Assembly (NCBI GenBank): GCA_020348445.1
Contig: CP070751.1
Location: forward strand, 3,713,002-3,777,001
DNA length: 64,000 nt
Reading direction: 5' to 3'
Source: Thermoplasmata archaeon
GTDB lineage: Archaea; Thermoplasmatota; Thermoplasmata; GCA-020350865
Shown: in pieces, positions 18,375-49,079 of the stretch
How the letters are laid out: every line of letters starts with the position of its first letter
Position numbering within the stretch: position 1 is the stretch's first letter
Notes under the pieces: generated by a model
Databases searched by the model: none
Told to the model about the DNA's origin: nothing
The model's input: the letters and a program-made list of their open reading frames with translations, nothing else
Translations under genes and position numbers: made by a program

Positions 18375-18583
18375 CTCAAAAGCGTGAAGTATAAGGGATA
18401 CAAATGGAGGAATATTCTCTGGGAATAAAAAGTGCTTTGGAGGGAACCTAAGCGATAATATTATATTTGACGATAAAGTTAATCATTCAAGTGAAGGGTG
18501 CTACTTAGAAAATGCATATCGCTGGTTTGCCATCGCCATTTCCGAGGCCTGCGTCCGTTTAACAGTAAAAGGAGGAGATTGTC
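18375..18583 (+). repeat. Repeat copy A (degenerate left part, A-type right end)
   Basis: AAAGCGTG..TATAAGGG; TTAGAAAATGC...GCCATTTCCGAGGCCTGCGTCCG...AGGAGGAGATTGTC. Confidence 0.85.
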
Positions 18584-18591
18584 GATTTTTT

Positions 18592-20130
18592 TTATTTTAC
18601 AGGGTCAATCGCCCTTATCCCATCGCTGTATCCCTCGAACTTTGTTCCATCTGTTAATTCTCCTGTAACCTTTAAATTGTAAGTTCCAGGTGACAGCATA
18701 TCCTCCACTTCGCTTCTATCGAATTTGACCATGAGTGTATCGCCTTGGATGTCACCCCATTCAGCTGGGATTGTATCTTCTAGTATCACAGTGCTGATAT
18801 CTATATCGTTGACATCATATGAGCTGTTCATTGTAATATAGCATGCAATCCATCTACCTTTGCTTTTTAAATTAAAGGTATTGGGATTTATATCCACTCC
18901 AGCAGAGATTGATGGAAAGGGGAGTAATATCTGTTTAAAGTAAATCTCATGATTACCATCTCTATAATCCGCCCAGACAACATGAACCATGTTTTCATTA
19001 ACTACGATATCCGGCGAAACGGAAGTCTCAGGGGCAACCGTAAGTCTTGTGTCAACACTCCATGTATTGCCTCTATCAAAACTGCTTTTGAAGTAAATTT
19101 CAAGACTCCCTCCCTTATCCCGGTCATCCTCCCATACTATATAGATATTATCGTTCTCTGCAGATATTGCCGGATCAAAAATATTGTGAGTAGAATTCGA
19201 GAGTTTAATATTTTTAACCCATGTATTCCCATTATCTTCACTATAGCTAAAATAAACCTGTCTTTTAGACTCTTTATGACCATAAACAACATAGATGTAA
19301 TCGTTATTATGAGCAATATCAACATAATAATTACTATTCGTTGGTGTACTAGTGATGTTAATATCCTTTTCCCACGTTACACCGTTATCTCTGCTTTTTA
19401 TATAAAAGATATCCGGAATCAAGTGTCCTGCTCTTTCGGTATCTCTCCACACTATATGTACATTATTTTCATTGACGGCTATAGCTGTCTCAATTGATAC
19501 ACTTCTGTTAGGTATTAGTATTTCGGGAACGCTCCAAGTAAAGCCGTTATCATTGCTATGAATGTAAGAAAGTTTATGATTTGAGTCTGAGTAGACAACA
19601 TGCAAGTTGTTCTCATACACGCCGATATCCCAATTAGGAAAATTGTCGTACATTATTGGCGTTATTGCGATCTCAGGGCTCCAGGTATTTCCATTATCTG
19701 TACTGCGAATATAATGTATTCTTTTATCATCGCTTTCACACCATATTACATGAATGTTACTTCCATTGACTGCTATTTTTGGATGTAATGCTTTTGTTGA
19801 AGGACCACTTACCAAGCAGATAGGAGGATTCCATGTATTTCCGCGGTCGCGGCTGTTTATGTACCATAAAAACATTTCGAGATATCCTGCACCTTCATTG
19901 TCGATATACGCCACATGGATGTTGTTGCCTTCTACTGCAATAGCTGGAAATAAGGAGCGTCCATCATTAAATGTCAGTCTAATATCCTCGCTCCAATCAC
20001 CTATATCAGTGGATGCTGTGGTTATTGAGATACTACTTAGCCCAATAGCAAACACAAACATAATGCTTAATAATTTTTTTCTCATATCTACCGCCCTCCC
20101 TCTCCAAAGAATAAATGCATCTGGAAGCAT
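18592..20130 (-). CDS. Secreted BNR/sialidase-like propeller protein with shared C-terminal domain (probable start 20085)
   Basis: Signal peptide; repeated S.D.G.TW; C-terminal NPNTFNLKSKGRW... domain. Confidence 0.8.
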   Translation of the reverse strand: MLPDAFILWRGRAVDMRKKLLSIMFVFAIGLSSISITTASTDIGDWSEDIRLTFNDGRSLFPAIAVEGNNIHVAYIDNEGAGYLEMFLWYINSRDRGNTWNPPICLVSGPSTKALHPKIAVNGSNIHVIWCESDDKRIHYIRSTDNGNTWSPEIAITPIMYDNFPNWDIGVYENNLHVVYSDSNHKLSYIHSNDNGFTWSVPEILIPNRSVSIETAIAVNENNVHIVWRDTERAGHLIPDIFYIKSRDNGVTWEKDINITSTPTNSNYYVDIAHNNDYIYVVYGHKESKRQVYFSYSEDNGNTWVKNIKLSNSTHNIFDPAISAENDNIYIVWEDDRDKGGSLEIYFKSSFDRGNTWSVDTRLTVAPETSVSPDIVVNENMVHVVWADYRDGNHEIYFKQILLPFPSISAGVDINPNTFNLKSKGRWIACYITMNSSYDVNDIDISTVILEDTIPAEWGDIQGDTLMVKFDRSEVEDMLSPGTYNLKVTGELTDGTKFEGYSDGIRAIDPVK

Positions 20131-20148
20131 ATAAAACCTTCTCTAAAA

Positions 20149-20336
20149 GACAATCCCCTCCTTCAAAAAAACGTACCGAGGAAGAAGAAGGCAAGAGCAA
20201 AGGACGCAGGCCTTCATGGAAGTTAGATTTGTGAGCAATCGGTACACTGAGGGAGTGGCAAAATCTTTATCCCCGAAGAGAGATAATGGTTTTAGGGATG
20301 GGGTTTAACGGCGACTCCCGAATATAAGCGAGGCTT
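20149..20336 (+). repeat. Repeat copy B (left TIR, B-type right end)
   Basis: GACAATCCCCTCC, GGACGCAGGCCT, AAAATCTTTATC/GATAATGGTTTT, ends AAGCGAGG. Confidence 0.9.
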
Positions 20337-20411
20337 AAGGTATGATCGTAAGTAAAAAAATACAGACTGCCAATAACAATTAAATCTAAAGAAAATACCC
20401 GGTGAAGAAAA

Positions 20412-21674
20412 ATGAAAGAGAAAGCTATTTCTGTGCTAGTTATTTGGTTGGTTTTGGTTGGGACATTTTTATCTAGCTTTTCTATTTCGTCCATCAGTGG
20501 CCAAGGGGATGAACACGTTGAAACAAGAATCGGAACCGAGATCCAAATATCCAACGCCTCCGGAGATCAAAGTTACCCAGCAATTTATGGCAACCTAATC
20601 GTGTGGGAAGACTATAGAAATTGGAGCTCACGCTATGATATTTATATGTATGATCTTGACACTGGTGAAGAAACTCGGATAACCATCAATGATTATGATC
20701 AAACTGCACCTGCCATCCACGGCAATCGAATTGTCTGGGAAGATAACAGGAATGATAATATGGATATATATATGTATGATTTAAGCACAGGAACAGAAAC
20801 ACCAATATGTCCAAATCCCACAAATCAATATGATCCGGCCATATATGACGACAAAATAGTCTGGAGCTCATTCGGCGGCATTTACTTATACAATCTGACG
20901 AACCAGACCGAGATAAGGATAAATGATGACTATGCACTCTTTGGCAAGAATCCAGATATCCATGGAGATCGAATTGTCTGGCAGGAAAAAAAGAATGAAA
21001 ATTATGATATATATCTCTATGATTTGAGTACAGGTAGCGAAACGCAGATAACAACTGGTCACATAAATTATACTTATCCTGCGATTTATGGCAACTATAT
21101 CATATACACATCTAGTGTAAATAGTGGTGAATTTCTTATATATTTATTTGACCTAACAACCGGATTAGAGAAACAGATAGCCAATGCGATTACGCATGAT
21201 TTACGGCCTGCAATTTATGATAACCTCATCGTTTGGGAAGATGCTGAGAATCATACGGGGGCCTTCATTCGAGATGTTTACCTGTACAACATTATCACGG
21301 ACACTGAGATACGGGTAAGCAACAACACCGCAAACCAGATTAAACCAGATATCTATGGCAATAGAATCGTTTGGATGGATGATAGAAACGGGGGGAGTTG
21401 GGACATATATATATGTGAAATTTCCGTAATGATTAATGGGGAGGAGGATGGTAGAGGAGATGATAAAGACGATATTTTTCCCCTCCTCTACAGCCTGATT
21501 GCCATCATCATAACGATCGTGTTCATTATATTTCTCGTCTTCATAATCAAAGCTAAAAAGAAATCCACTATTCAAAAGGAAGATGAAGAGAAATGGACGA
21601 GATGTCCAAAGTGTAAAGCACGCCTTAAAAAGAAGAATCTTAAAAGCCATATCAAAAAAGTTCATAAAAAATAA
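20412..21674 (+). CDS. Surface protein: TolB-like propeller repeats, TM helix, cytoplasmic C2H2 zinc finger
   Basis: PAIYG..IVW.D.RN repeats; tail CPKCKARLKKKNLKSHIKKVH. Confidence 0.82.
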   Translation: MKEKAISVLVIWLVLVGTFLSSFSISSISGQGDEHVETRIGTEIQISNASGDQSYPAIYGNLIVWEDYRNWSSRYDIYMYDLDTGEETRITINDYDQTAPAIHGNRIVWEDNRNDNMDIYMYDLSTGTETPICPNPTNQYDPAIYDDKIVWSSFGGIYLYNLTNQTEIRINDDYALFGKNPDIHGDRIVWQEKKNENYDIYLYDLSTGSETQITTGHINYTYPAIYGNYIIYTSSVNSGEFLIYLFDLTTGLEKQIANAITHDLRPAIYDNLIVWEDAENHTGAFIRDVYLYNIITDTEIRVSNNTANQIKPDIYGNRIVWMDDRNGGSWDIYICEISVMINGEEDGRGDDKDDIFPLLYSLIAIIITIVFIIFLVFIIKAKKKSTIQKEDEEKWTRCPKCKARLKKKNLKSHIKKVHKK

Positions 21675-21684
21675 AATGATAACA

Positions 21685-22004
21685 GATCACGAGCTACAGT
21701 GCGCCGAGCATAAGGGGAACGGCTTCGTTTTCGAATTTTGAAGAAATTTGAAAACTGAGATGGGCGAACGAAGCGAGCACATCGAAGGCGCAGGCAACCA
21801 AACGGTGTGGGGGGAAGAAGGTAAGAACAAAGGGCGCAGGCCTCCATGAAGCAAGGAGTAATCTGAGAGCACAGAATGGCAAAACCTTTATCCCTTTAGG
21901 AAGATAATGGTTTTAGGGATGGGGCTTAGAAATGGCATGTGAACAATAACCCAACGTCATTTCCGAGGCCTGCACCCGTTTACCAATAAAATGAGGTGAT
22001 TCTT
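21685..22004 (+). repeat. Repeat copy C (no left TIR, A-type right end)
   Basis: GCGCCGAGCATAAGGGG through GAGGCCTGCACCC and degenerate right TIR. Confidence 0.9.
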
Positions 22005-22117
22005 GGGACTAAATTCAGAATTAGTAAATTAATAGCCTTTAAGCCTATACTTTTTTTTATAGCAATTAATATATAATCATACTGTCTATCTATGAAGAGG
22101 TTAATAGGAGGATAAAA

Positions 22118-22624
22118 ATGAAAATTCCCGTGTTTGTTTCTTGTCCAACAACCTTAAATGATAATCAAGAGAGTGCAAGAAAAATTATTATTCATGAACT
22201 TGATGAATTAGGATTAGAACCCAGAGCATTGGGAAGAACGGATTATCCTGCAGATTTCCCCTTGAAGGAAGTTTTAGTTATTGCAAATCATTGTTCGGGA
22301 GGAGTTGTTTTAGGATTTGAACAATTTTCAACAGATAAGGGGATATGGAAAAGGGGGATGAAAGAAGAAAGAGTTCAGAACGATTTAATTGCATTTTCGA
22401 CTCCATGGAATCACCTTGAAGCAGGTATTATGTTTGCTTTAAGCCTTCCGCTTATTGTTTTTAAAGAAAATAGTATTTCTGGAGGAGTTTTCGATAGAGG
22501 TGTTACAGATGTATTTATCCATAAAATGCCCATGGGGGAATTATCCAAACAAAGTAAAAATGCACTAAGGGAAGTGTTTCTAAATTGGCAAAGGAAAGTA
22601 AGGGCACACTATTATGGAGATTAA
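22118..22624 (+). CDS. TIR/nucleoside-deoxyribosyltransferase (NDT)-like protein
   Basis: IPVFVSCPT; STPWNHLEAGIMFALSLPLIVF. Confidence 0.6.
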   Translation: MKIPVFVSCPTTLNDNQESARKIIIHELDELGLEPRALGRTDYPADFPLKEVLVIANHCSGGVVLGFEQFSTDKGIWKRGMKEERVQNDLIAFSTPWNHLEAGIMFALSLPLIVFKENSISGGVFDRGVTDVFIHKMPMGELSKQSKNALREVFLNWQRKVRAHYYGD

Positions 22625-23974: not shown

Positions 23975-24330
23975 GACACTCCCCTCCTTAATAAAGAGCG
24001 CGCCGAATATAAGGGGGACGGCTTTACCACAGGCACGCAAACCGAGACCAAAGGTCGAGGAAATGTGCAGTGCGAAGCACTGTATGTGGGGAAGCCACCC
24101 TTTTTCCACCGGCGCTTTTTATAATAGGGCCGATGGGGAGGATGAAGGTAAGAGCAAAGGACGCAGGCCTCCTATAAGCAAGGAGCAATCCAAGAGTGCG
24201 GAGTGGCAAAACCTTTATCTTAGCAAGAGATAATGGTTTTAGGGGTGGGGCTTAGAAATGGCATGAGGACAATATCCCAACGCCATTTCCGAGGACTGCG
24301 TCCGTCATAAAGAAAAAGGAGGGGATTGTC
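23975..24330 (+). repeat. Repeat copy D (full length, 356 bp)
   Basis: Both TIRs; stem 24159-24171/24291-24303; GCGAAGC hairpin insert. Confidence 0.93.
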
Positions 24331-25265: not shown

Positions 25266-25340
25266 AAACATATATTGTAAAATAGCAATTAATTTATATC
25301 CATTTATCTGATATATAAGAAACATATTAGGAGGGAAAAT

Positions 25341-25591
25341 ATGAAAATTCCTGTGTTTGTATCATGCCCAACTATGTTGAATAATAATCAAGAGAACGCA
25401 AGAGAAATAATTATTCATGAACTTGACGAATTAGGATTAGAGCCAAGGGCATTGGGTAGAACTGATTACCCAACAGATTTCCCTCTGATATCGCTGGTTA
25501 CGATAGGATTGAATATCAAAGTATAGTTGAGTTTAAAGAGTTGCTAGATTTAAAATTTAAAAAATTTGTAAAAGAATTTATAAGGGTATAG
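25341..25591 (+). pseudogene. Truncated copy of the 22118 gene joined out of frame to an NDT-like C-terminus
   Basis: About 48 codons near-identical to 22118; PSDIAGYDRIEY in another frame from 25481. Confidence 0.75.
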
Positions 25592-26809: not shown

Positions 26810-27215
26810 GACAATCCTCTCCTAATATAAAGCGTGCCGAGCATAAGGGGGACGGCTTCGTTTTCGAATTTTGAAGAAATTTGAAAACTAAGTGGGCGAG
26901 CGAAGCGAGACCACGGAGGCGCAGGCACAAGACGGTCTGGGGAGGAAGAAGGTAAGTGCAAAGGACGCAGGCCTCCGTGGAAGCTCCGGCTGAGGGAGCC
27001 CGGTTTTCCTGGGCGAACGAGGGTTGCGACGAGAGTGGGCATTTAAATCTTCAGTGATGTATAATTATGGAGCCAGGAGCAATCGGAAATGACGGTAGTG
27101 GCAAAACCTTTATCCCCGTAGAGAGATAATGGTTTTAGGGGCGAACGAGCAGGCGAATCAAACAATAGCGTAAAAAGCCAGCGCAGTGAGCGGACGGGGC
27201 TTAAAGGCGAGGGGG
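26810..27215 (+). repeat. Repeat copy F (left TIR, extra modules, B-type end)
   Basis: All central modules present; ends GGGGCTTAAAGGCGAGG. Confidence 0.92.
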
Positions 27216-27277
27216 CATGTATTTATCGAAGGAGTTTGGCCTCGGTTCTAAAGTATAAAATATGTGGAAAAACATAA

Positions 27278-27295
27278 ATATGTTAAACAACATAT
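27278..27295. promoter_or_regulatory. Palindromic operator upstream of toxin-antitoxin pair
   Basis: ATATGTT-AAAC-AACATAT. Confidence 0.55.
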
Positions 27296-27311
27296 ATAGA
27301 TTGGTGAGAAT

Positions 27312-27542
27312 ATGCCAAGTATGACGCTATCTATCCCAGAAGATCTCCACTCATTCATTAAAAGACATAATGAAATTCGCTGGAGCGAGATTGCACGGAG
27401 AGCTATGTGGGATTATGCAAAACGATTAGAGATATTGGATCGTATTGCAGAAAAAAGTAAACTTACTGAGAAAGATGTCGAAGAATTAGACAGAATGATA
27501 AAGAAAGCAGTTCACAAACATTATAGGAAGTATACCAAATGA
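27312..27542 (+). CDS. RHH/CopG-like antitoxin
   Basis: MPSMTLSIPEDL...IRWSEIARRA; overlaps toxin start. Confidence 0.8.
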   Translation: MPSMTLSIPEDLHSFIKRHNEIRWSEIARRAMWDYAKRLEILDRIAEKSKLTEKDVEELDRMIKKAVHKHYRKYTK

Positions 27543-27949
27543 GATTCGTAGTGGACACTAACATAATATTTTCTGCACTAATAAAGGATTCAATATCTAG
27601 GAAGATTTTATTATCAACAAAATTTGAGTTTTTTACACCCGAGTACATTTTTGTAGAAATCCAAAATCACTCAGATGAAATTATCAGGAGGTGTGATCTT
27701 GATACTGAGGGTTTTGAACTCATGGTAGATTCATTAATGACTGATGTCATGGTAGTCTCTATCGATGATTTTAAAAAATATATACCAAAGGCATATCATA
27801 TAATGAAAGATATTGATGAATATGATACCTCATTTTTAGCACTTGGATTAATGATAGACGGAGAAGGGATATGGAGTAATGATGCCCATTTTGACAAACA
27901 GAATGCAATTAAGGTGTGGAAAACAAAGGACATGATAAAGCTTCTTTAA
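27539..27949 (+). CDS. PIN-domain (VapC-like) toxin
   Basis: VVDTNIIFSAL...D..D..FLAL...IWSND. Confidence 0.9.
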   Translation: MRFVVDTNIIFSALIKDSISRKILLSTKFEFFTPEYIFVEIQNHSDEIIRRCDLDTEGFELMVDSLMTDVMVVSIDDFKKYIPKAYHIMKDIDEYDTSFLALGLMIDGEGIWSNDAHFDKQNAIKVWKTKDMIKLL

Positions 27950-27963
27950 ATCATTTATAATAT

Positions 27964-28103
27964 CCTGAGCAGGTAGGGGATGGCCAGCACAAGGATATAA
28001 TGGCTAGGGGAGGTATAGGAAGGGCCAAACTCCGCTTGAAATCTAGATGCACCCTCGCCTTCGATGCGTGAGCTATTTATAGCGACGCAAGCGACTGTGG
28101 AAG
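27964..28103 (+). repeat. Repeat copy G, left part (interrupted by IS110)
   Basis: CTGAGCAGGTAGGGGATGGC; GACGCAAGCGACTGTGGAAG at the junction. Confidence 0.65.
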
Positions 28104-28154
28104 ATGGTATGTTTAAATCCGCCTTCGAGATAATGTGCTCGGAGGTGCAGAAGT

Positions 28155-29138
28155 ATGCTATACGCAGGATTGGATGTACATAAAAACTTTTGTCAGGCCA
28201 TAGTAATGACAAAAGGAGGTAAAGTTGTAAAAGAAGATAAGATAGGAACGGAGCAGGAAGATATCGAAGAATTCTTTTATGGGTTGAAGAATGTAAGAAT
28301 TGCGTTTGAGGCATCGATGTATTATGAGTATGTCTACGAAATACTCAATGGATTGGGATATGAAGTATCTCTATCCCATTCATTAAAGACAAGGCTGATA
28401 GCCGAGTCAAGGATAAAGACAGATAAGATCGATGCAAAGGCACTAGCAGATTTGTTACGAGCAGATCCATTGCCAACATCTTATATCCCGCCTGAAGATA
28501 TTCGTAAAGTGAGACATTTAGTCCGTCATAGGATATTCTTAGGAAGACACCGGACCAAATTGAAGAACCATATATATTCAGAGTTGAACCATAGAAACTT
28601 GAAGTTCTGCGGTCCTGATGTGTTCACCAGGGCTGGTATGAAATGGTTGCAGGGATTAAATATCCCAGCAATTAATTCCTACTTGGTAATTTTAGATGCG
28701 GTATTAAATGAAGTAAAATCTGTAGAGTTGAAGATAAAGATTGAAGGTATGAAATATGATGAAGTAAGGTTGTTGAGCACTATACCGGGAATAGGAGTAT
28801 ATTCTGCATTGATAATCCTTTCAGAGATAGGAGACATAAATCGGTTCAGCTCTGAAGAGAAATTGTACTCCTATGCTGGAATGATACCTAGAGTCCATCA
28901 ATCTGGCGATAGTAGTTATCAAGGTAGAATCACGAAGGAGGGTTCTAAACACCTTAGATGGATCTTAGTAGAAGCACTCCGAATCCATATTCAATGTGCA
29001 CCAGATAGTAAGGTCACTCGTTATTATTATCGTCTCAAAAAGAAGAAACCAGGTAATGTTGCTACTATGGCAGGAGCAAGAAAGCTTCTTCAAGTGATTT
29101 ATCATATGTTGAAAAATCAGGATGAATATCGAGGTTAG
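28155..29138 (+). CDS. IS110-family recombinase/transposase
   Basis: DEDD motifs GLDVH, FEAS, KTDKIDA; SYAGMIPRVHQSG. Confidence 0.95.
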   Translation: MLYAGLDVHKNFCQAIVMTKGGKVVKEDKIGTEQEDIEEFFYGLKNVRIAFEASMYYEYVYEILNGLGYEVSLSHSLKTRLIAESRIKTDKIDAKALADLLRADPLPTSYIPPEDIRKVRHLVRHRIFLGRHRTKLKNHIYSELNHRNLKFCGPDVFTRAGMKWLQGLNIPAINSYLVILDAVLNEVKSVELKIKIEGMKYDEVRLLSTIPGIGVYSALIILSEIGDINRFSSEEKLYSYAGMIPRVHQSGDSSYQGRITKEGSKHLRWILVEALRIHIQCAPDSKVTRYYYRLKKKKPGNVATMAGARKLLQVIYHMLKNQDEYRG

Positions 29139-29265
29139 ATGTGCAGACCTTGAGGCGGAGCTTGCGGCATTGCGACCGCCCGTGGAAGATTAAGGTGCAC
29201 ATCTAACCAAGGACGAAGCAGCCATATTGCGGCACTATGACCGCGAATAGGAGCATGTCATAAGT
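29137..29265 (+). ncRNA. Predicted bridge/seek RNA with target- and donor-binding loops
   Basis: Two parallel units guide-GCGG-CA(N4)GA-CCGC-guide; first matches the target, second partly matches the circle junction. Confidence 0.75.
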
Positions 29266-29321
29266 GATATATACAAACGAAAATAATAAGGTATCGTAAA
29301 TTCGGGCGGATTTCACATAGA

Positions 29322-29598
29322 AGCTCCGCCCGAGAGAGTCGACGGGGCGAGCGAGGGGTTGCGACCGGCGAATATATTTGGCGACACAGGGAGCAATTCG
29401 AGTGTTCGAGGTCAGATTTTATGATCGACGCCTCGATATTCCGGACGGAGTGGCCGAAGTGGTTATATGTGATTAATGTCATAGCGGAGAGGGATACAAG
29501 CAAAGTCCCAGTTTCTGGGGCTTAGAAATGGCATGTGGACATGTCCCAACGCCATTTCCGAGGCCTACGTCCGTCTTAAAAAAAAGGAGGGGATTGTC
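29322..29598 (+). repeat. Repeat copy G, right part (A-type end)
   Basis: AGCTCCGCCCGAG...GGGGCTTAGAAATGGC...AGGAGGGGATTGTC. Confidence 0.88.
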
Positions 29599-31405: not shown

Positions 31406-31747
31406 GACAATCCCCTCCTATTAAGAAAGCGTGCCGAGCATAAGGGGGACGGCTTCGTTTTCGGATTTCGAAGAAATTTGAAAACTAAGTGGGCGAGCGA
31501 AGCGAGACCACGCAGGCGCAGGCACAAGACGGTCTGGGGAGGAAGAAGGTAAGAGCAAAGGACGCAGGCCTCCGTGGAAGCTCCGCCCGAGATAGCCCGT
31601 TTTATTGGGCGAACGAGCAGGTGAAGAAAGCAATAGCAAAATGAGCCAGCGCAGTGAGCGAACGGGGCTTAGAAACGGCATGAGGACAATATCCCAACGA
31701 CATTTCCGAGGCCTGCGTCCGTCTAAAAGAAAATGGAGGGGAATGTC
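31406..31747 (+). repeat. Repeat copy H (full length, 342 bp; contains an empty IS target)
   Basis: Both TIRs; perfect stem 31560-31572/31708-31720. Confidence 0.93.
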
Positions 31748-31778: not shown

Positions 31779-31851
31779 TATCGTTATTAATGAAAACGGC
31801 GAGAATCGTTAATAAGAATCTGAAGTTGTATCCTTATTAATGAGGACGATA
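31779..31851. promoter_or_regulatory. Three related boxes (TATCGTTATTAATGA-like) upstream of fic
   Basis: Boxes near 31779, 31804 and 31829. Confidence 0.4.
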
Positions 31852-31853
31852 AT

Positions 31854-33011
31854 ATGAAATTTCCAACAGACCGTGCAGGTAAGTATAAGAAGCATAAGAA
31901 TGGTTATAAGACATTCGTTCCTAAATCCCTGCCGCCCAATCCACCTCTTGAGTTGGATGGTCAATTATTGAGATTATTATCAAAAGCCGACCAGGCACTT
32001 GGGCGATTGGATGGTGTAACCGAAGTTCTTCCGAATCCGGATCTTTTTGTAATAATGTATATAAAGAAAGAAGCGGTATTGTCGTCACAGATAGAAGGAA
32101 CTCAAGCCTCATTAATGGACGTGTTGGAATTTGAAGCCAAGGCCCTTGACCCTTTTAAATCTAGGGATGTAAGGGAAGTTGTAAATTATATAAAAGGAAT
32201 AAATTACGGTTTGGATCAAATAAAACAGGATAAGAATATCAGTATTTCCATGATCAGGAAAATACATGCTTATCTTCTTGAGGATACGAGAGGTGGAGAA
32301 AGGGATTCGGGAAATTTAAGGAATATACAAAATTGGATAGGGCCGCCTGGTTGTGATATCTCAGAGGCCATATTCATCCCTCCTGAGATAAAAGATATGA
32401 AGATCGCTTTGAAAGATCTTGAGGAATTCATAAAAAAAGATTATGAGTTACCACCATTGATTAAAGCTGGATTGGTCCATTCCCAATTTGAGACCATTCA
32501 CCCATTCATTGATGGCAATGGAAGGATAGGCAGACTTCTTATAACCCTTATATTGACACAGAGTGGCTATCTATCCCGACCGCTTCTATATCCTTCTTAT
32601 TATTTCAAACAAAATCGGGCAGAATACTATGATAGACTCCAGGCTGTTCGGGATATGGGAGAATGGGAATCGTGGTTGGTTTTCTTCCTAAATGGGATGT
32701 ATAAAGCATCAACAGAAGCGATAAAAACTTCCATGAAGATACTTGAATTAAGAAAAAGTCAACAGGAGGTGATCACTGAAAAATTGGGTAAAAAGAGTGG
32801 TTCGGCCCTGAGATTATTTGATGAACTCTATAATAATCCCTTGGTAACAGTAAATTCTATTGCTAAGATAACCGGCCTTTCCTATCCCAATTCCAATCGC
32901 TTAGCATCAATATTTGAGGAGCTGGATATTTTAAAGGAGATCACAGGTCAAAAGCGGAATAGAATATTCGAGTTTATTAAATATATGGATATCTTGAATG
33001 AAGGAATATAG
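31854..33011 (+). CDS. Fic family protein with C-terminal HTH
   Basis: HPFIDGNGRIGR; inhibitory SSQIEG motif. Confidence 0.93.
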   Translation: MKFPTDRAGKYKKHKNGYKTFVPKSLPPNPPLELDGQLLRLLSKADQALGRLDGVTEVLPNPDLFVIMYIKKEAVLSSQIEGTQASLMDVLEFEAKALDPFKSRDVREVVNYIKGINYGLDQIKQDKNISISMIRKIHAYLLEDTRGGERDSGNLRNIQNWIGPPGCDISEAIFIPPEIKDMKIALKDLEEFIKKDYELPPLIKAGLVHSQFETIHPFIDGNGRIGRLLITLILTQSGYLSRPLLYPSYYFKQNRAEYYDRLQAVRDMGEWESWLVFFLNGMYKASTEAIKTSMKILELRKSQQEVITEKLGKKSGSALRLFDELYNNPLVTVNSIAKITGLSYPNSNRLASIFEELDILKEITGQKRNRIFEFIKYMDILNEGI

Positions 33012-33040
33012 TTCTATTATAATTAATGGAATGAGGGAAA

Positions 33041-33312
33041 GACAATCCTGTGCTGCTTTTTAGCGTGCTGAGGAAGAAGGGGGACGGCTTCACCGCAGGC
33101 ACAAAGACAGGTTTGGTGGAGGAAGAAGGTAAGAGCAAAAGACGCAGGCCTCCGTTAAGAAAGGAGCAATCCGAAAGAACAGAGAGGCAAAACCTTTATC
33201 CTCTTAGAGAGATAATGGTTTTAGGGGTAGGGCTTAGAAATGGGATATTGGCAATACCAAACCCCATTTCCAGGTCAAAGGCCATTTTTCAAAAGAAGAA
33301 AGGGAGAAGTTT
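33041..33312 (+). repeat. Repeat copy I (degenerate full length)
   Basis: All core modules; compensatory GAAATGGG/CCCATTTC. Confidence 0.88.
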
Positions 33313-33343
33313 ATGTATACAAACCATCAATAATTAAAAACAT

Positions 33344-34915: not shown

Positions 34916-34984
34916 TACGACACTTAATAATGAAAGAAGAAATAGATTGGCGGACATGATTTAGCAATGAATAGATTACAAGCA

Positions 34985-35150
34985 GAAAGGACGGAGTACC
35001 AAAACCTTTATCCTCGTAAGGGCTACCAAAGGTGCCCAAAATTTACCCCAGGGCTTTTTAAGCAACAATGGGAAAGATTTAAAAAGGGCTGAGAGGGATA
35101 ATGGTTTTAGGGGTGGGGCTTAAGGAGACACCCGAAATAAAGCGAGGCTG
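34985..35150 (+). repeat. Repeat copy J (middle module with loop insertion, B-type end)
   Basis: AAAACCTTTATC...GATAATGGTTTTAGGGGTGGGGCTTAAGG...AAGCGAGG. Confidence 0.85.
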
Positions 35151-35202
35151 GAGGCAAAAATAATAGTGACAATTGGAGAAACGTGCCAAAATAATAAAAT
35201 AA

Positions 35203-37235: not shown

Positions 37236-37353
37236 ACTACGATCTCTAGCGTGTCGAGCATAAGGGATAAGGCTTAGAAATGGCATATTGATGTATAGCT
37301 GAATGTCATTTCCGAGGCCTGCGTCCGTCTAAAAGTAAAAGGAGGGGATTGTC
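37236..37353 (+). repeat. Repeat copy K (central modules absent, A-type end)
   Basis: GCGTGTCGAGCATAAGGG joined almost directly to GGCTTAGAAATGGC...GGGGATTGTC. Confidence 0.9.
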
Positions 37354-37926: not shown

Positions 37927-37960
37927 GAATTGGTTGGCCTCGGTGAGGTTGAAAAATAAT

Positions 37961-38030
37961 ACAATCCCCTCCTTCAAAAAAGCGTGTTGAGGAAGAAGGT
38001 AGGAAGGTCCCAAGGAAGGCCGAATTATCT
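37961..38030 (+). repeat. Repeat copy L (left part only)
   Basis: ACAATCCCCTCCTT...AAGCGTGTTGAGGAAGAAGGTA. Confidence 0.8.
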
Positions 38031-39057: not shown

Positions 39058-39060
39058 TTA

Positions 39061-39160
39061 CGAGGGTTTTTTAGGTGGGGCTTAGAAATAGCATGTGGAC
39101 AAAATCCTAACGTCATTTCCGAGGCCTGCGTACGTTTGAAAGTAAAAGGAGGGGATTGGC
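39061..39160 (+). repeat. Repeat copy M (right part only)
   Basis: GGGGCTTAGAAATAGC...GAGGCCTGCGTACG...AGGAGGGGATTGGC. Confidence 0.88.
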
Positions 39161-40177: not shown

Positions 40178-40331
40178 GACAATCCCTTCCTTTAAAAAAG
40201 CGTTCCAAGGCAAGAGCAAAGGACGCAGGACTACATGGAAGTTAGATTTGTGAGCAATCGGTACACTGAGGGAGAGGCAAAACCTTTATCCTTATAGAGA
40301 GATAATGGTTTTAGGGGCGGGGCTTGCGAGG
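40178..40331 (+). repeat. Repeat copy N (left TIR, B-like end)
   Basis: Central part nearly identical to copy B. Confidence 0.88.
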
Positions 40332-40363
40332 AAAGCGATTGAACTAAATGGAGATGTGCCCGG

Positions 40364-40801: not shown

Positions 40802-41000
40802 AATCCCTGTTCCCAGAACAGGTAGGGGAAGGCTTCACTAGTCCGATAATAGATTCAGATAGGAGTAGCAATCCATGGTGAGCAAAATCTTTATCTCATA
40901 GAGGGATAATGGTTTTATGGATGGGATTTAGAAATGGCATGTGGACATTAACCCAACGCCATTTCCGAGGCTTGCATCCGTTTAAAAGGAGGGGATTGTT
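40802..41000 (+). repeat. Repeat copy O (degenerate left part, A-type end)
   Basis: Hairpin module, GAAATGGC/GCCATTTC, AGGAGGGGATTGT. Confidence 0.85.
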
Positions 41001-41008
41001 GATTTTCT

Positions 41009-42346
41009 TTATTTTCCAGGGTCAATCACTCTAATCTCATCACTGTATCCCTCAAACGACGTTCCATCTGCTAATTCTCCAGTAACCTTCAGATTATAGG
41101 TACCAGGCGACAGCATATCCTCTACTTCGCTTCTTTCAAACTTGACCATGAGAGTATCGCCTTGGATGTCACCCCATTCAGCTGGAATTGTATCTTCAAG
41201 TAAAACACTATTAACGTCTATATCGTTAACATCATAACCAGTGGGTAAATCGATATAACAGGTAATCCAATTTCCCTTTGATTTGAGATTAAGAGTATCT
41301 GGATCAATATCAACAATAGCTTCAATTGTATCATTATAAGAAGATGATGGGTACCTAAGGATTGAACTTCCTCCTACAATCAGAGCATATTTGCCATCAG
41401 GTCTCCAATCGACATCCCTAAGAAAGTCGATGGTATCAGTTTTCAATTCTATTAAACCTTCTTCATCATATTTGTAAACTCGCCCATAACCTCCAGCAAT
41501 TAAAGCATAACTTCCATCAGGGTTCCAATCGACATCAAATAGTGGAACCTGCATCCATACCCCTGGTGATGCTTCATAAGATATATTGCTATATAATTCT
41601 GTCAATGAAATACCGTCATATTTCCAAATAGAGCCTCCGCTTACCAGGAGTGCATAACTGCCATCTGGTTTCCAAGACACACCAAAAAATTGTTTTGCTG
41701 GTGTATACAAATTTGAAAATGTTGTTCCGTCATATTTTATAACTTTTTTCCCTACTATTAAGGCGTAGCTACCATCGGGTTTCCATTCAACATCAGAAAG
41801 TACGTTATTTACTTTATGAGCAATATGGAAATTAGACCCATTATATGTAATTACCAGCCCCCGTGGGTCCATATGATACCGATCATATAATCCGACAATT
41901 ACAGCTTGACTTCCATCAGGTTTCCAATCAATTCCAGTAAAAGCGTAGAATCTATAAAGGGTTCTATTATCAATATGTGTGTAATTGAAGGTTGTTCCAT
42001 TATAAACGTAAATCCTCATATCGCTTCCGAGTAGAGCATAACTACCATCCGGATTCCATTGACTACTGTAAAACGAATACATTTGATATTTTGCCCATAC
42101 CTGTGTATAATCTTGACCATCGTATGTATATGAAGTTTCACCAGTCATACCCAATAAGGCTAGGCTGCTATTCGGGCTCCAAGATACACTGTATAAGACC
42201 GGGGGGCATGGATGAGATAAACTCTCGACCTCCAATTCTGATTCAGGTGAATTACTCATTACATTCTCGTTTCCAAAGGAAAAAAAAACAAAAGATAGCC
42301 CCAATATCAATGAAATTATGCCATGAATTTTTGCCAACATTATCAA
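41009..42346 (-). CDS. Secreted WD40-like propeller protein with shared C-terminal domain
   Basis: W.PDG.YAL repeats; DPDTLNLKSKGNW domain. Confidence 0.82.
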   Translation of the reverse strand: MIMLAKIHGIISLILGLSFVFFSFGNENVMSNSPESELEVESLSHPCPPVLYSVSWSPNSSLALLGMTGETSYTYDGQDYTQVWAKYQMYSFYSSQWNPDGSYALLGSDMRIYVYNGTTFNYTHIDNRTLYRFYAFTGIDWKPDGSQAVIVGLYDRYHMDPRGLVITYNGSNFHIAHKVNNVLSDVEWKPDGSYALIVGKKVIKYDGTTFSNLYTPAKQFFGVSWKPDGSYALLVSGGSIWKYDGISLTELYSNISYEASPGVWMQVPLFDVDWNPDGSYALIAGGYGRVYKYDEEGLIELKTDTIDFLRDVDWRPDGKYALIVGGSSILRYPSSSYNDTIEAIVDIDPDTLNLKSKGNWITCYIDLPTGYDVNDIDVNSVLLEDTIPAEWGDIQGDTLMVKFERSEVEDMLSPGTYNLKVTGELADGTSFEGYSDEIRVIDPGK

Positions 42347-42470: not shown

Positions 42471-42687
42471 GAGAATCCCCTCCTTAAGAAAAAGCTTGCA
42501 GAAGAAAGGGGCCCCTTCACTATATTGATGATGGATTCAGGGAGGAACAATCCGAAACTTCGGAGTAGCAAAACCTTTATCTTCGCATGACAATGATGGT
42601 TTTGGGGCTTGGGCTTAGAAATGGCATATCGCGGATTACAAATGACATTTCCAAGGCATTTCCGTTAAACAACAAAATGAGGGGATT
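42471..42687 (+). repeat. Repeat copy P (degenerate full length)
   Basis: GAATCCCCTCCTT...GGGCTTAGAAATGGC...GAGGGGATT. Confidence 0.82.
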
Positions 42688-42689
42688 AA

Positions 42690-43898: not shown

Positions 43899-43927
43899 GT
43901 TCGAAGTTGAATTTACTTTGAGCAGTT

Positions 43928-43978
43928 TGTCATTTCCAAGGTGTGCATCCATCTATAAGCAAAAGGAGGGGATTGGCG
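43928..43978 (+). repeat. Repeat copy Q (right-end fragment)
   Basis: GTCATTTCCAAGG...AAAAGGAGGGGATTGGC. Confidence 0.75.
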
Positions 43979-43985
43979 ATATTTT

Positions 43986-45380
43986 TCATTTTCCAGGATC
44001 AATGACCCTTATCTCATCGCTATATCCCTCAAACGATGTTCCATCTGCTAATTCCCCAGTAACCTTCAAATTGTAAGTCCCGGGTGATAACATATCCTCT
44101 ACTTCGCTTCTGTCGAATTTGACCATAAGCGTATCGCCTTGGATGTCACCCCATTTGGCTGGTAATGTATCCTCGAGTATCACAGTGCTGATATCTATAT
44201 CGTTGACATCATAACCATTTGGGAGGCCAATGTAACATGTGATCCATTTGCCCTTTGATTTAAGATTGAGCGTGTCAGGATCGATATCAATAAATGAAGT
44301 AATGATTGAGGCCCAAGGTCGCATAAGAGGATAATAATCATAATATCTATCGGGGTGAGGAATCAGAGTATCACCTATTCCATCACCTGCAATTGAATGT
44401 TTTCCTGTTCCGCTACCGTCATCTTCACCTGTATAATCTGACCAGTAATTGCCTTCTAAAAGAACAGGATGATACCAATTGTTTCTACTTCTCGAAGGAT
44501 CATCAACTCGGGCATTAAAGAAATTATTATGATATATGGTATTTCCCCTAGAACCATACCCTGTACATATACCCCAATCTCGACCTGAAATTGTATTATT
44601 CATTATTATATTATTATTGGAACGATCCCATAGATTAATATCAATGTCATTTGAGAGGATAATATCGGTGATTAAGTTGTAATTTGAATGATAAATCAAA
44701 GAAATACCTACAAAATTATCTATTACAGTATTATAGGCAACAGTATTGTTATTACTATAAAAATATATATCGATACCATAGTAATTATTGATTACTAGAT
44801 TATATGTTATAATGTTATTGTTAGAATATTGTAAAATAATTCCACATTTATAATTCCAGGCCGAGTAATTCAAAGAGATGATGTTGTTTGTAATAATATT
44901 ATATCTCGAATAGTACGCATAAATACCATAATTGCTGTCTAATAGCATGTTACTATAAATGTTGCATCTATCTGAATTTATTTGAATTCCTGCGTCACCA
45001 GTTAAAGAGCCACTTTTTTTGATAGTGAAACCAGAGACATTTACCCAATCTGCATTAATATTAATAACATCCCCATTTCCACCACCATCAATAACGGTAG
45101 TGATATTGTCTTCTCCTTGTAATGTAATAGTTTTATTTATGAATATATTCTCATGGTAATTTCCTGCCCTCACATATACGATGTCGCCATGATTTGCTGC
45201 ATCTATTGCCTCTTGAATCGTGAAATAATCATCAGGAACGACGATTAATGTTGCACTAACTATTGGGGTATATATTACAATAAAGAAGGATACAATCAAC
45301 AAAGCACATATTACAAAGCTTATTGCTTTTTTTCGCATTCTTACTCCCCCTCCATGAAAAATAAATGTATCTAGAGACAT
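43986..45380 (-). CDS. Secreted NosD/pectin-lyase beta-helix protein with shared C-terminal domain (probable start 45338)
   Basis: VPDDYFTIQEAIDAA; GNYWSDY; DPDTLNLKSKGKW domain. Confidence 0.85.
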   Translation of the reverse strand: MSLDTFIFHGGGVRMRKKAISFVICALLIVSFFIVIYTPIVSATLIVVPDDYFTIQEAIDAANHGDIVYVRAGNYHENIFINKTITLQGEDNITTVIDGGGNGDVININADWVNVSGFTIKKSGSLTGDAGIQINSDRCNIYSNMLLDSNYGIYAYYSRYNIITNNIISLNYSAWNYKCGIILQYSNNNIITYNLVINNYYGIDIYFYSNNNTVAYNTVIDNFVGISLIYHSNYNLITDIILSNDIDINLWDRSNNNIIMNNTISGRDWGICTGYGSRGNTIYHNNFFNARVDDPSRSRNNWYHPVLLEGNYWSDYTGEDDGSGTGKHSIAGDGIGDTLIPHPDRYYDYYPLMRPWASIITSFIDIDPDTLNLKSKGKWITCYIGLPNGYDVNDIDISTVILEDTLPAKWGDIQGDTLMVKFDRSEVEDMLSPGTYNLKVTGELADGTSFEGYSDEIRVIDPGK

Positions 45381-45398: not shown

Positions 45399-45541
45399 GA
45401 CAATCCGCTCCAGCGTGTCGAGTATGTGTGGGAAGGCCGAAACACACAAACCTCTATAAAGCAAGGAGCAATCCGTGAGCACAGAGTAGTAAAACCTAAA
45501 CCCCCGTAGAGTGATAATGGTTTTAGGACTTAAAGCCGAGG
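45399..45541 (+). repeat. Repeat copy R (left TIR, B-type end)
   Basis: GACAATCCGCTCC...GATAATGGTTTTAGGACTTAAAGCCGAGG. Confidence 0.82.
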
Positions 45542-45587
45542 AGTGAAAAAAAGATAAGGTCACTGTATCCGATAATAATGGGCTTAA

Positions 45588-47057: not shown

Positions 47058-47147
47058 TTATATCACCTTTATTCCTTATAGAAATAATATATACTATAAT
47101 TAAGAATTTCTAAAAGTCTCTTTGAAAGTTCCGAATATAGGGCAGAT

Positions 47148-47307
47148 GGCCTGCGTATAAGGGAGGAATATAGAAAGTGCAGATTCCGCAGGCCTTCGTG
47201 AAGTGAGGACCAGTTCGAGAGGATTGATTGGCAAAAACTTTATCTTCGTAGGGAGATATTGGTACAAGATGCGGGGCTGTTAATGCCATTCCATAATATA
47301 AGCGAGG
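47148..47307 (+). repeat. Repeat copy S (degenerate, B-type end)
   Basis: CGCAGGCCTTC; AAAACTTTATC/GATATTGGT; AAGCGAGG. Confidence 0.7.
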
Positions 47308-47357: not shown

Positions 47358-47750
47358 GTGGATATTAAGGATCTTAGAAGAATGAATCTTGTTGGGACAA
47401 TTTTTTTTGCTCTTTTCGGGAGTATCGGTGTAGCATCTATTTTTAATAGTTATTACAGTATTCAAAGACAATTTCCAAAATATGACTTTTCTGGAACTTT
47501 AAACCTTGCAATAATTTTACTTTGCATAGTAGTAATTTTTACAATTCTTTTATATAGATTTACAGTGATTGGTTTAGATCGAGGGAACTATAAAGGTGCC
47601 AAATTTTTCACATTGATAGGGATTCTTGTTGGATGGATAGGTTGGATCATTCCTTCAATTGTATTTATAAAATCCTTTCTCTCATTCGATGAAGCGATCG
47701 GACGTATTAAGAAAATTGAAAGCCCCAAAATGTCATTGAGAGATAAATAA
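47358..47750 (+). CDS. Membrane protein, paralogue of the 53427 ORF
   Basis: IGLDRGNY...TLIGILVG...SFDEAI. Confidence 0.7.
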   Translation: MDIKDLRRMNLVGTIFFALFGSIGVASIFNSYYSIQRQFPKYDFSGTLNLAIILLCIVVIFTILLYRFTVIGLDRGNYKGAKFFTLIGILVGWIGWIIPSIVFIKSFLSFDEAIGRIKKIESPKMSLRDK

Positions 47751-47816: not shown

Positions 47817-47866
47817 AAAGCGTTGAATAAGAGTATTAAGCCAAGTTCATGGCTTAAAGGCGAAGG
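47817..47866 (+). repeat. Minimal element T
   Basis: AAAGCGTTG...TTAAGCCA-AGTTCA-TGGCTTAA-AGGCGAAGG. Confidence 0.6.
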
Positions 47867-47889
47867 TGATTAACAGTTGAGGGATTCAC

Positions 47890-48120
47890 ATGGGAAATTT
47901 GTTACATTTATTCCATCATCATAAACGAAAAAAATACGAAACGGAGAAGATGAAAGAATCGACAAAAGAGCAATATGATAAGGAATTGAAGAATCAACCG
48001 AAAAAATTTGATTATTATTGCCCATCTTGTCTTTTTCAAACAGATACATATTCTAAAATCTGTCCTAAATGTAACAAAGGAAAATTACAACAAACAACCG
48101 GGAATGTTACTTCAAAATAA
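47890..48120 (+). CDS. Small zinc-ribbon protein
   Basis: CPSC...CPKC. Confidence 0.6.
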   Translation: MGNLLHLFHHHKRKKYETEKMKESTKEQYDKELKNQPKKFDYYCPSCLFQTDTYSKICPKCNKGKLQQTTGNVTSK

Positions 48121-48200
48121 TGTATAATTAATACACTATGTAAAATCGGAATAATGAGGAAATAATGAAAACTGTTAAAGTACTTAAATACAATAAAGGT

Positions 48201-48228
48201 GTGTAGGGAAGGGGTTAAAGCACGAGGC
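48201..48228 (+). repeat. Minimal element U (B-type end only)
   Basis: GGGGTTAAAGCACGAGG. Confidence 0.4.
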
Positions 48229-48272
48229 AAAAAGCTTCAAATATATCTGGAACTTAGGAGGAAAATGAAATA

Positions 48273-48918
48273 ATGGCAAGAAAATGCCCCCACTGTAAAG
48301 CCCGACTAGGGACATTAGCCACTTCATGTTGGAAATGTAAATCCCCCGTAGATTATTACAAATCTCAATCAAAAGAAGTTGATCATAAAGAGATAGAAGA
48401 GCCTAGAAATATCGGGAAACTAGTTATTGTTCCATATGTAATGGTCACGATTTTGGCAATTATTTTAGTATTGATTATTGCTGTTGGGGGGGGAATTATA
48501 TCTACTTATTCTTCTAGTATATATGGGCATAATAGTATTCGGATCATTATTTAAAAAATCTTGGAAAGCAGAAAAAGTGATGGAATTGAATAAGATGGAC
48601 CCTTGGGAAGATTTTCCTTTTTGTGCCCATGGTAACATAATAGAGAACATTTTTACGGCACAGAAACTACCAGAATGGGAAGTAAAAAAATCGGGGTTAG
48701 TCGTAGACACTACCATTTTGATATTCGACTTTATTTTATGGATATTATTGATAATACTAATGCGCTTTCAAGGTCCAGATTTACATTGGTGGTCACATTT
48801 TGGCCCAATAATCGAAATTTTTGCCATATATGTTCTTTATCCAATATTTCTATTTATACTCATATTAATTTATTACAAGGATATCAAGATCTATAAATCT
48901 AAAAAACTTCAGCTGTAG
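48273..48918 (+). pseudogene. Zinc-ribbon membrane protein split by a frameshift at a G8 run (ORFs 48273-48554 and 48478-48918)
   Basis: Deleting one G at 48486-48493 fuses the two frames within a TM segment. Confidence 0.6.
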
Positions 48919-49049
48919 TTATAAATATGAATTGCCATAAGGCATACTTTTTTTGCCCTTAGTATTTATATGCTGCACTGACATAAGCAGTGGGGGCTCC
49001 CAGGGCAATCCCACAAAAGGATAATAAGTATCCAATATACCATTTAATT

Positions 49050-49079
49050 TTAAGCCAAGATTTGAACTTAAGGCGAGGG
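49050..49079 (+). repeat. Minimal element V
   Basis: TTAAGCCAAGATTTGAACTTAAGGCGAGGG, similar to T. Confidence 0.55.

Follow-up and report, generated by a model that had tools for sequence, protein, structure and literature searches.

A tandem array of co-oriented gene cassettes in a Thermoplasmata archaeon, with a Y1 transposase as the candidate enzyme

Introduction

Integrons are the textbook bacterial device for stockpiling and shuffling accessory genes; they consist of an IntI tyrosine recombinase, an attI site and an array of cassettes with attC sites, and they have been reported in archaeal metagenome-assembled genomes (MAGs) too. The attC sites measure 55-140 nt, follow the order R''/L''...L'/R', carry RYYYAAC/GTTRRRY cores and cross over between G and TT. 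Insertion sequences (IS) of the IS200/IS605 family encode TnpA, a Y1 HUH transposase that works by "peel and paste" single-strand transposition (PMC5027513), and repetitive extragenic palindromic (REP) sequences and bacterial interspersed mosaic elements (BIME) occur with REP-associated tyrosine transposases (RAYT/TnpA-REP; PMC3333891, PMC8266576). Here we compare with these systems a stretch of 64,000 nt from a sediment Thermoplasmata archaeon (GenBank assembly GCA_020348445.1, contig CP070751.1, positions 3,713,002 to 3,777,001), which we call the window. It holds an accessory island that is a tandem, co-oriented array of about 20 mobile gene cassettes joined head-to-tail. In the literature searched, we found no published description of such arrays, nor of a native archaeal cassette system with a different enzyme.

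Results

The array and its host contig

A first-pass annotation, made from the letters of the window, had proposed that about 20 large palindromic elements, all in one orientation, punctuate the segment from 18.4 to 49.1 kb. The repeat is real: the 14-mer GACAATCCCCTCCT occurs 17 times in the window with at most 2 mismatches, against 0.57 expected, and module 2 occurs 5 times against 0 expected. Profile hidden Markov models (HMMs) were built for four modules, namely L, the left terminal repeat together with module 2; B, the inner stem; C, a hairpin from AAAACCTTTATC to GATAATGGTTTT; and D, a hairpin from GAAATGGC to GCCATTTC with the right arm. They gave 36 matches in the window, all on the + strand, all within 18,496-47,265 and none in the housekeeping flanks. 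The proposed series of co-oriented elements is thereby confirmed, with 19 of them placed. In agreement with the annotation, no target-site duplication is visible around them. The elements occupy almost the entire length of each intergenic gap. Just two are complete (23975-24330, 356 nt; 31406-31747, 342 nt), the others being partial or mosaic, and the two complete copies fold much better than shuffled sequence (z = -5.9 and -3.7).

The island is larger than the annotated 18375-49079, extending from about 17760 to 53858, with a G+C content below that of the flanks. At the orthologous site of a congener (G001) it is lacking: the aminotransferase orthologue, beside GatE, is followed about 50 bp later by a HypC-like gene orthologous to the window from 53859 onwards. 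The island is therefore a 36-kb insertion relative to that genome.

The assembly to which the window belongs (G000) is a MAG, 81.7% complete and 3.8% contaminated, made of 354 contigs that are linked by 100-N runs and shown as one 5.16-Mb contig. Arguments from genome-wide spacing and replication strand were dropped for this reason. Its 5.16 Mb lie well above the size of its congeners (2.3-3.7 Mb), so that the assembly may be a mixed bin. Of 16S rRNA, no more than a 123-nt piece was matched. The window sits on a 141-kb contig that also bears GlnA, GatE and the aminotransferase, which form the left flank of the array, and the HypC-like gene; the array is thus chromosomal. Module matches are restricted to 9 of the 354 contigs, where they stand in arrays. 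The main arrays are two, that of the window and one on a 17.4-kb contig in which all copies lie on the opposite strand, as do most of the contig's genes. Several contigs terminate within an element.

Each palindrome is the joint of two cassettes

The annotation had taken the palindromic element, of roughly 340 nt, as the unit. This part of it does not stand: the palindrome is the joint of two adjacent cassettes, in which the 3' arm and linker of one abut the 5' arm of the following one, and the exchange point falls in the middle of the element. The break lies just 3' of hairpin C, between hairpins C and D, at GGGGCTT(A); the motif at the joint, GGGGCTTA, was tested directly in our study, as were compensatory changes in the stems. 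The linker is structured and ends in hairpin C plus about 14 nt finishing in RCTT(A), so that joint ends read hairpin C plus AGGGATGGGGCTTA, or ..GTACGTGACTTA, up to the break. Hairpin C is followed by AGGGNNGGGGCTT(A) and then by either a D hairpin arm or the box AAGGCGAGG, whose reverse complement, CCTCGCCTT, sits just 3' of the next gene.

A cassette consists of one or a few genes, in either orientation, within inverted-repeat arms of its own that are laid out as D-B'-R...L-B or as AAGGCGAGG...CCTCGCCTT. In type 1, the D hairpin, GAGGCCTGCGTCC and AGGAGGGGATTGTC precede the gene, and GACAATCCCCTCCT and GGACGCAGGCCTC follow it; GGACGCAGGCCTC pairs with GAGGCCTGCGTCC as the inner stem and GACAATCCCCTCCT with AGGAGGGGATTGTC as the terminal repeat. 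Type 2 has the same layout with the inner stem GGCCTTTGGCCTC/AGGCCAAAGGCC and the terminal repeat CAAACTTCTCCCTTTC/AGAAAGGGAGAAGTTTG, and type A has AAGGCGAGG+n ... n'+CCTCGCCTT. When contiguous copies are aligned, every difference between types 1 and 2 is compensated: the 4 positions that distinguish B1 from B2 each have a compensating change, and R2/L2 form a separate pair of about 16 nt that are fully complementary to each other.

Arms were typed at 37 loci, which are related to each other. In 43 of 44 cassettes, the 5' arm agrees in type with the 3' arm that follows it on the other side of the gene. Across contiguous joints the types match in 15 of 37 cases, consistent with random assortment (chi-square p = 0.87), and the two concordances differ at Fisher p = 4e-9, p-values whose independence is overstated through the kinship of the loci. 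Chimeric joints are found, for example, at 33039-33312 of the window and at L037:1651 and L041:1340 among the related loci. The A-type cassettes behave alike: the 10 nt beyond their core boxes are complementary at 5.5 of 10 positions within a cassette (n = 18), against 3.08 +/- 0.36 for shuffled partners, with none of 2000 shuffles reaching 5.5, and at 2.4 of 10 across the joint (n = 7). These cassette-specific extensions of the stem pair solely inside their own cassette. Since concordance holds within cassettes and assortment is random across joints, the heritable unit is the gene inside its foldback. We consider the cassette anatomy and the site-specific joint well supported and highly probable.

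Hairpin C was compared in 80 distinct sequences. Its lower 10 bp are essentially invariant in sequence and its T.T mismatch is kept in 80 of 80 copies, whereas the upper 3 bp covary (65 double-change cells vs 27 +/- 8 in shuffles). An invariant stem with a fixed mismatch is what a hairpin-reading protein would preserve. Wobble pairs are G.T in 25 cases and C.A in 11, a bias that points to the + strand as the one that would be folded. The 3' arm has an additional covarying stem around the conserved loop GAGCATAAGGGGGAYGGCTTCG.

Nothing in Rfam matches at the gathering score. A permissive Rfam search gave only a sub-threshold match of one copy to a group II intron D1-D4 model (RF02001, group-II-D1D4-3), at full length over 33153-33317 with 24.5 bits, under the 32-bit gathering score. 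A group II reading of this joint was rejected, given that the MAG has no domains 5-6 (RF00029) and no RVT_1 reverse transcriptase and that no other copy matches; we regard the resemblance as due to chance or as very remote.

Units are gained and lost at the joint

Related arrays differ by whole cassette-plus-linker units, which are gained or lost exactly 3' of RCTT(A); the two ends of a unit have no more than 3-5 nt in common. In two cases a unit-sized insertion starts right after ..CTT(R)A and finishes in ..CTT(R)A. The related locus L127 has an 809-nt toxin-antitoxin (TA) cassette, with matched arms and a linker of its own, that has no counterpart in locus L023 of the window's assembly; it follows ..GTCGTCACTTGA (..GTCACTTGA), where L023 has the next cassette directly, and terminates in ..GGGGCTTGAA. 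In L120, a 1621-nt unit was inserted after ..GGGGCTT and terminates in ..CATCACTT. The two ends of these inserts share only CTT(RA) and their upstream contexts differ, which favours site-specific cutting over homologous recombination. Blanket distances from the ends of homology to the joints were dropped because neighbouring elements are alike, which makes such distances too noisy; arm typing and the insertion cases were used instead.

All four congeners have the element, and a search of 36 further genomes of the class did not find it. It occurs at 55 of 80 metagenome loci, where every contig with several modules has them co-oriented, and we found no viral contig that carries it. One related metagenome contig is labelled WOR8, which we take to stand for White Oak River estuary sediment. 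The congeners G003 and G004 have arrays beside the same aminotransferase as the window, with other cassettes; the one cassette that G003 has in common with the window is that at 49135-49566, towards hypC. In G002 there is a copy of the Fic cassette, 80% identical, and what stands upstream of it is different. The annotation had read the locus as an accessory cassette array with a recombination site of its own and cargo in both orientations. The matched cassette ends, the precise break and a content that differs between congeners at the same chromosomal site bear out the first point, and the second is seen in genes that point either way, including four minus-strand genes around which the polarity of the arms is kept.

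A Y1 transposase accompanies the arrays of relatives

A tyrosine recombinase and an HUH/Y1 enzyme had been named in advance as the enzymes that might accompany such an array. For the first, the whole MAG has no more than two short fragments that match PF00589, which lie on other contigs, and no integron integrase is present. Genes of the second kind co-occur with the arrays of relatives, with none in the array of the window. Y1_Tnp is the largest family of open reading frames (ORFs) among the array loci, where no protein family recurs except Y1 and the surface proteins. The Y1 proteins of array loci pass the IS200/IS605 model, and with the RAYT model NF047646 they reach 18-28 bits against a cut-off of 80. 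On element-bearing contigs lie 11 of the 17 Y1 matches of G002 and 5 of the 8 of G003, and the window's MAG and every congener have intact TnpA genes, which either head an array or lie inside one. No TnpB was found near the arrays, and a TnpB/guide-RNA reading of the linker was rejected for this reason.

One subfamily, Y1c, is single-copy in 4 of 5 congeners and has two copies in G002; the gene of G000 lies at L021:5048-5461. It aligns over its full length with the TnpA of IS608 (E = 6e-26) and keeps the HUH histidines and the catalytic Tyr. Within 0.1-1.1 kb after the gene comes a hairpin ending in ..GTACGTGACTT(A), and the break is followed directly by a AAGGCGAGG cassette. This layout was seen in G000, G002 (both copies), G003, G004 and one metagenome contig; no joint was found upstream of Y1c. 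The ..GTGACTTA end also abuts D-type cassettes elsewhere, and in G004 it heads the array adjacent to the aminotransferase. By analogy, the arrangement of Y1c, primary site and array resembles an integron platform.

IS200-type Y1 genes were also found in tandem pairs, at L036:13553-14894, L036:6073-7420, L037:2931-3905 and L046:25-948. The two genes of a pair encode about 139 aa and 163 aa, and a long inverted repeat separates them. The pairs are multi-copy in G002 and G003 and lie within cassettes on the opposite strand. Two different Y1 paralogues per unit are unusual for IS200/IS605. The ends of a canonical IS200 copy in the same MAG were compared with hairpins C and D and are not like them, its hairpins being unrelated. 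Taken together, the sequences suggest that an IS200/IS605-type single-strand transposase would be the most likely enzyme.

Joints and cargo along the window

The cargo of the window comprises surface proteins (BNR, WD40, PKD/beta-helix and fn3), enzymes (a GH114 glycoside hydrolase, Fic, two GNAT acetyltransferases and two radical-SAM enzymes), PIN and ParE toxin-antitoxin pairs and many ORFs without a family match. The array on the 17.4-kb contig carries an AbiV-type HEPN protein, a PIN protein and an LVIVD-repeat protein.

All joints of the window are on the + strand. Joint 1 (18380-18583) has a module-2-like box and breaks after 18507 (CTACTTA), where the D-B1'-R1 5' arm of the next cassette begins; the cargo of that cassette is a minus-strand BNR-repeat surface protein (18592-20130) bracketed by R1 (18570-18583) and L1 (20149-20162). 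Joint 2 (20149-20340) consists of the 3' arm L1-B1-hairpin C, a break after 20307 and an A-like box, and joint 3 (21695-22002) of module 2, B1 and hairpin C, a break after 21928, and D-B1' with a degenerate R. Joint 4 (23975-24330) is complete, with L1-module 2-B1-C before the break after 24254 and D-B1'-R1 behind it. In joint 5 (26810-27218), L1-module 2-B1-C and an extra stem are followed by a break after 27203 and the A-box AAGGCGAGGGGGCAT. That box opens an A-type TA cassette (27204-28061, +) in which a 76-aa ORF without a Pfam match, the presumed antitoxin, is accompanied by a PIN toxin (27312-27949); AAGGCGAGGGGGCAT (27204-27218) pairs with ATGCACCCTCGCCTT (28047-28061) at 14 of 15 positions.

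The linker of this TA cassette is interrupted by an IS110-family element (28097-29338, +; transposase 28155-29138). A copy 90% identical to it stands at the same position of the element in the metagenome contig L106. The IS110 element is a passenger and no part of the cassette system, and by analogy with the IS1111 elements of attC sites and the REP-targeting members of IS110 it seems to home to this repeat. The remaining linker forms joint 6 (29339-29598), which breaks after 29524 and continues with D-B1'-R1.

Joint 7 (31406-31747) is complete in a variant form, an extra stem replacing hairpin C, and breaks after 31671. The core of the Fic cassette (31784-33011, +; gene 31854-33011) is the part that is 80% identical to the G002 copy in a different upstream context. 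Joint 8 (33039-33312) is a chimera of a type-1 3' arm (L1-B1-C) and, behind the break after 33236, a type-2 5' arm (D-B2'-R2). Joint 9 (34975-35160) has an insertion in the loop of hairpin C, a break after 35122 and an A-like box; the short joint 10 (37248-37353) has a module-2 box, a break after 37276 and D-B1'-R1; and joint 11 (39058-39160) breaks after 39084 before D-B1'-R1, the matching L1 of the preceding cassette lying at 37960-37973. Joint 12 (40178-40340) shows L1-B1-C and a break after 40326, between CTTG and CGAGG. Joint 13 (40810-41000) consists of linker and hairpin C, a break after 40930 and D-B1'-R1, and joint 14 (42471-42689) of L1 and hairpin C, a break after 42617 and a degenerate D arm. 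A partial D-B'-R1 arm (43919-43977, +), upstream of a minus-strand beta-helix gene (43986-45380), has no clear CTTA break and hence stands outside the count of 19 joints. Joint 15 (45399-45545) has L1 and hairpin C, a break after 45532 and the box AAGCCGAGG; joint 16 (47136-47300) is degenerate, with a B-like box, hairpin C and a break near 47289. The last three joints, with small-ORF cassettes, fall within 47830-49085 and break after 47856, 48217 and 49070, each before an AAGGCGA-type box; the final three or four copies are minimal, reduced to CTTA and the AAGGCGAGG box behind the break.

Several repeats involve the cargo itself. The 3' ends of the minus-strand BNR, WD40 and beta-helix genes (18567-18866, 40984-41283 and 43961-44260) are 80-82% identical over 300 nt. 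The proteins, otherwise different, thus have a common C-terminal module, which explains the constant 8 nt from stop codon to R arm. A 164-nt repeat, 83% identical, links 22102-22265, at the start of the gene 22118-22624, to 25325-25488, at the short ORF 25341-25526; this ORF, apparently a decayed paralogue, falls within 716 nt of "intergenic" sequence. Another repeat (47568-47702 and 53421-53555) makes the small ORFs 47358-47750 and 53427-53792 paralogous, the first near the last recognisable joints and the second at the far right edge of the island. Paralogues at both places suggest that the element-free stretch from 49.6 to 53.8 kb, which carries a ParE/VapB-like pair (49702-50232) and a 1035-aa fn3 protein, is part of the array as well. 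At the left edge of the window (67-3078) a unit of 267-273 bp is repeated twelve times in tandem; its copies are 63-74% identical in an aligned 57-nt core and presumably encode a repeated extracellular domain inside one long coding region.

Discussion

Proposed mechanism and what weighs against it

The best explanation overall, to which we assign a probability of roughly 0.6, is a cassette array moved as single-stranded DNA by an IS200/IS605-type Y1 (HUH) transposase. In such a scheme, TnpA would recognise hairpin C in the top strand and cleave each end of the unit 3' of RCTT(A), and pairing of the arms around the gene, within the single strand, would draw the cut sites towards each other. The excised circle would carry a fully matched palindrome and would re-insert 3' of another RCTT(A) presented by a hairpin. 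As the right end of the unit is the same motif, insertion would regenerate the target, and arrays would for this reason grow head-to-tail in one orientation. The single-copy Y1c, with its own joint and cassettes, might act as an integron-like platform, and the array of the window, which has no enzyme gene, might be served in trans. Peel-and-paste transfer of this kind would account for the co-orientation, the lack of duplications, the cargo in either direction, the chimeric joints and the matched cassette ends. The excess of G.T over C.A pairs (25 to 11) and the strict co-orientation would be indirect signs of a strand-specific single-stranded intermediate. The Y1 single-strand mechanism on its own is plausible from the sequences compared, at odds somewhat below even. 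Slightly more tentative is the fuller picture of an integron analogue built on an HUH enzyme, in which a resident single-copy TnpA with a primary site captures and shuffles cassettes as single-stranded DNA.

Several observations weigh against this explanation, in addition to the kinship among the typed loci. No Y1 gene is present in the window or near the array on its 141-kb contig, so that the link to Y1 is drawn from relatives and from another contig of a fragmented, possibly mixed MAG. The enrichment of Y1 in arrays could reflect mobile elements piling up in variable islands, and the tandem Y1 pairs look like ordinary insertions. Members of IS200/IS605 normally have neither long inverted repeats nor cargo, and the D hairpin starts directly at the cut, whereas about 19 nt separate the hairpin of IS608 from the cut upstream of it. 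In two cases homology breaks at the outer end of the 3' arm and not at the joint, which indicates that linkers and cassettes can also be exchanged separately; more than one exchange point, or homologous recombination, also operates, and recombination among the conserved modules may contribute. The proposal leaves this second exchange point and the elaborate linker unexplained. With its several helices and GNRA-like loops, the linker could pass for a functional RNA as readily as for a DNA site, and an RNA role for linker or arms is possible.

Alternative explanations

The alternative that survives best accepts the same anatomy and site-specific joints and assigns them to an unrecognised recombinase or a host repair pathway, the Y1 genes being passengers or parasites like IS110. 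The array of the window without a Y1 gene would fit it, as would the insertion of tandem Y1 pairs into cassettes on the opposite strand, the parallel targeting of the element by IS110 and the many cargo ORFs without a family match, among which a recombinase could be sought. We nevertheless consider it unlikely, because Y1 and the surface proteins are the only families to recur across array loci, because the 3' flank of Y1c ends in the joint motif and leads into cassettes in the four genomes and the metagenome contig named above, and because a hairpin with a short conserved cut motif, no duplication and a single orientation is Y1-like geometry.

A structured RNA is less probable still. Here the arms would be paired 5' and 3' untranslated regions that process, stabilise or regulate transcripts, the linker a functional non-coding RNA and the mosaic a product of homologous recombination. 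Several helices covary, with GNRA-like GCAA loops and conserved internal loops; the elements are oriented as most genes are; the excess of G.T over C.A indicates the sense strand; the A-box resembles a ribosome-binding site and stands 10-60 nt before many start codons; and one copy has the sub-threshold match to group II D1-D4. However, the polarity of the arms is unchanged around the four minus-strand genes, and the 5' arm is usually separated from the gene by AT-rich, promoter-like sequence, which would probably put the arm outside the transcript. Homologous recombination also leaves unexplained a gain and loss of units exact to the nucleotide with 3-5 nt shared, and no Rfam family reaches its gathering score.

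We regard as very improbable an ordinary miniature inverted-repeat transposable element (MITE), mobilised through its terminal inverted repeats by a DDE transposase with a preference for intergenic DNA. Many contiguous copies do have 14-nt terminal inverted repeats and lie in intergenic DNA, and repeats of this sort break assemblies, as the contigs ending within an element illustrate. The annotation had held that copies scattered in random orientation with target duplications would identify such an element; what we found are clustered, strictly co-oriented copies with no visible duplication. In addition, the halves of a contiguous copy assort independently while the halves flanking a gene match, the 14-mer is almost confined to arrays, and no transposase gene is flanked by it.

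Least probable of all is a true integron or CALIN (an attC cluster without integrase), or a set of group II intron remnants, since the cassette-array layout with its typical TA, Fic and GNAT cargo and the RF02001 match of a single copy are outweighed by the absence of an integron integrase, of RYYYAAC/GTTRRRY boxes and of intron domains 5-6 and reverse transcriptase, and by sites of 150-400 nt, 2-5 times the length of attC, which also upholds the annotation's statement that the elements are not attC.

Significance and comparison with known systems

If the proposed system is correct, it would be a third independent solution to cassette capture beside integrons and ISCR elements, the first native to archaea, and a case of convergent evolution of cassette platforms. 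It would explain how surface proteins, toxin-antitoxin pairs and defence genes diversify in widespread sediment Thermoplasmata, and would extend the repertoire of IS200/IS605 enzymes from selfish insertion sequences to gene capture at the level of the host. A small enzyme, a hairpin and a short motif would also make a compact system for programmable insertion of single-stranded DNA.

The likeness to integrons lies in the logic. Both have co-oriented arrays of unrelated accessory genes, with a folded, imperfectly palindromic site between genes. In both, the start of a cassette completes the previous site, so that sites in the array are chimeric and the two ends of one cassette match. TA pairs, GNAT and Fic are cargo in both, IS110/IS1111-type elements target the sites of both, arrays occur with and without an enzyme gene nearby, and their content varies among relatives. 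The differences are equally clear: the arrays described here have no IntI and no R''/R' core boxes, their composite site spans 150-400 nt as opposed to the 55-140 nt of attC, and exchange takes place at the apex of the fold, behind hairpin C, whereas in integrons it takes place near the base. Long arms of 13-30 bp or more bracket each gene, the cassettes often seem to have promoters of their own and may hold several genes, and the candidate for the enzyme is an HUH Y1 transposase whose gene precedes the array and points the same way.

The likeness to IS200/IS605 is mixed in two respects. A small TnpA (Y1c) with HUH and Tyr that matches the IS608 enzyme accompanies the arrays of relatives, though not that of the window, and imperfect subterminal hairpins (C and D) with a conserved mismatch and the lack of target duplication recall the family, though the long inverted repeats shared by the left and right ends are atypical of it. 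A single orientation is common to both. The putative cut falls 3' of the right-end hairpin, at a short and constant distance and after a conserved motif of 4-5 nt, and insertion takes place 3' of the same sort of motif. Unlike members of that family, the units have arbitrary cargo in place of a transposase, and their right end restores the target, so that tandem arrays arise; the gene for the enzyme is essentially single-copy and heads an array, with no TnpB.

REP/RAYT systems likewise combine a low-copy Y1 enzyme of domesticated appearance with many intergenic palindromes that it would recognise, and such repeats are also targeted by IS110-family elements. However, REPs measure 20-40 nt and are spread over the genome in both orientations without genes, whereas the repeats of the arrays are large, clustered and co-oriented and delimit cassettes, and NF047646 stays below its cut-off. 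The system is therefore neither REP/RAYT nor MITE nor group II intron; it is integron-like in its logic and IS200/IS605-like in its likely chemistry, and a member of neither.

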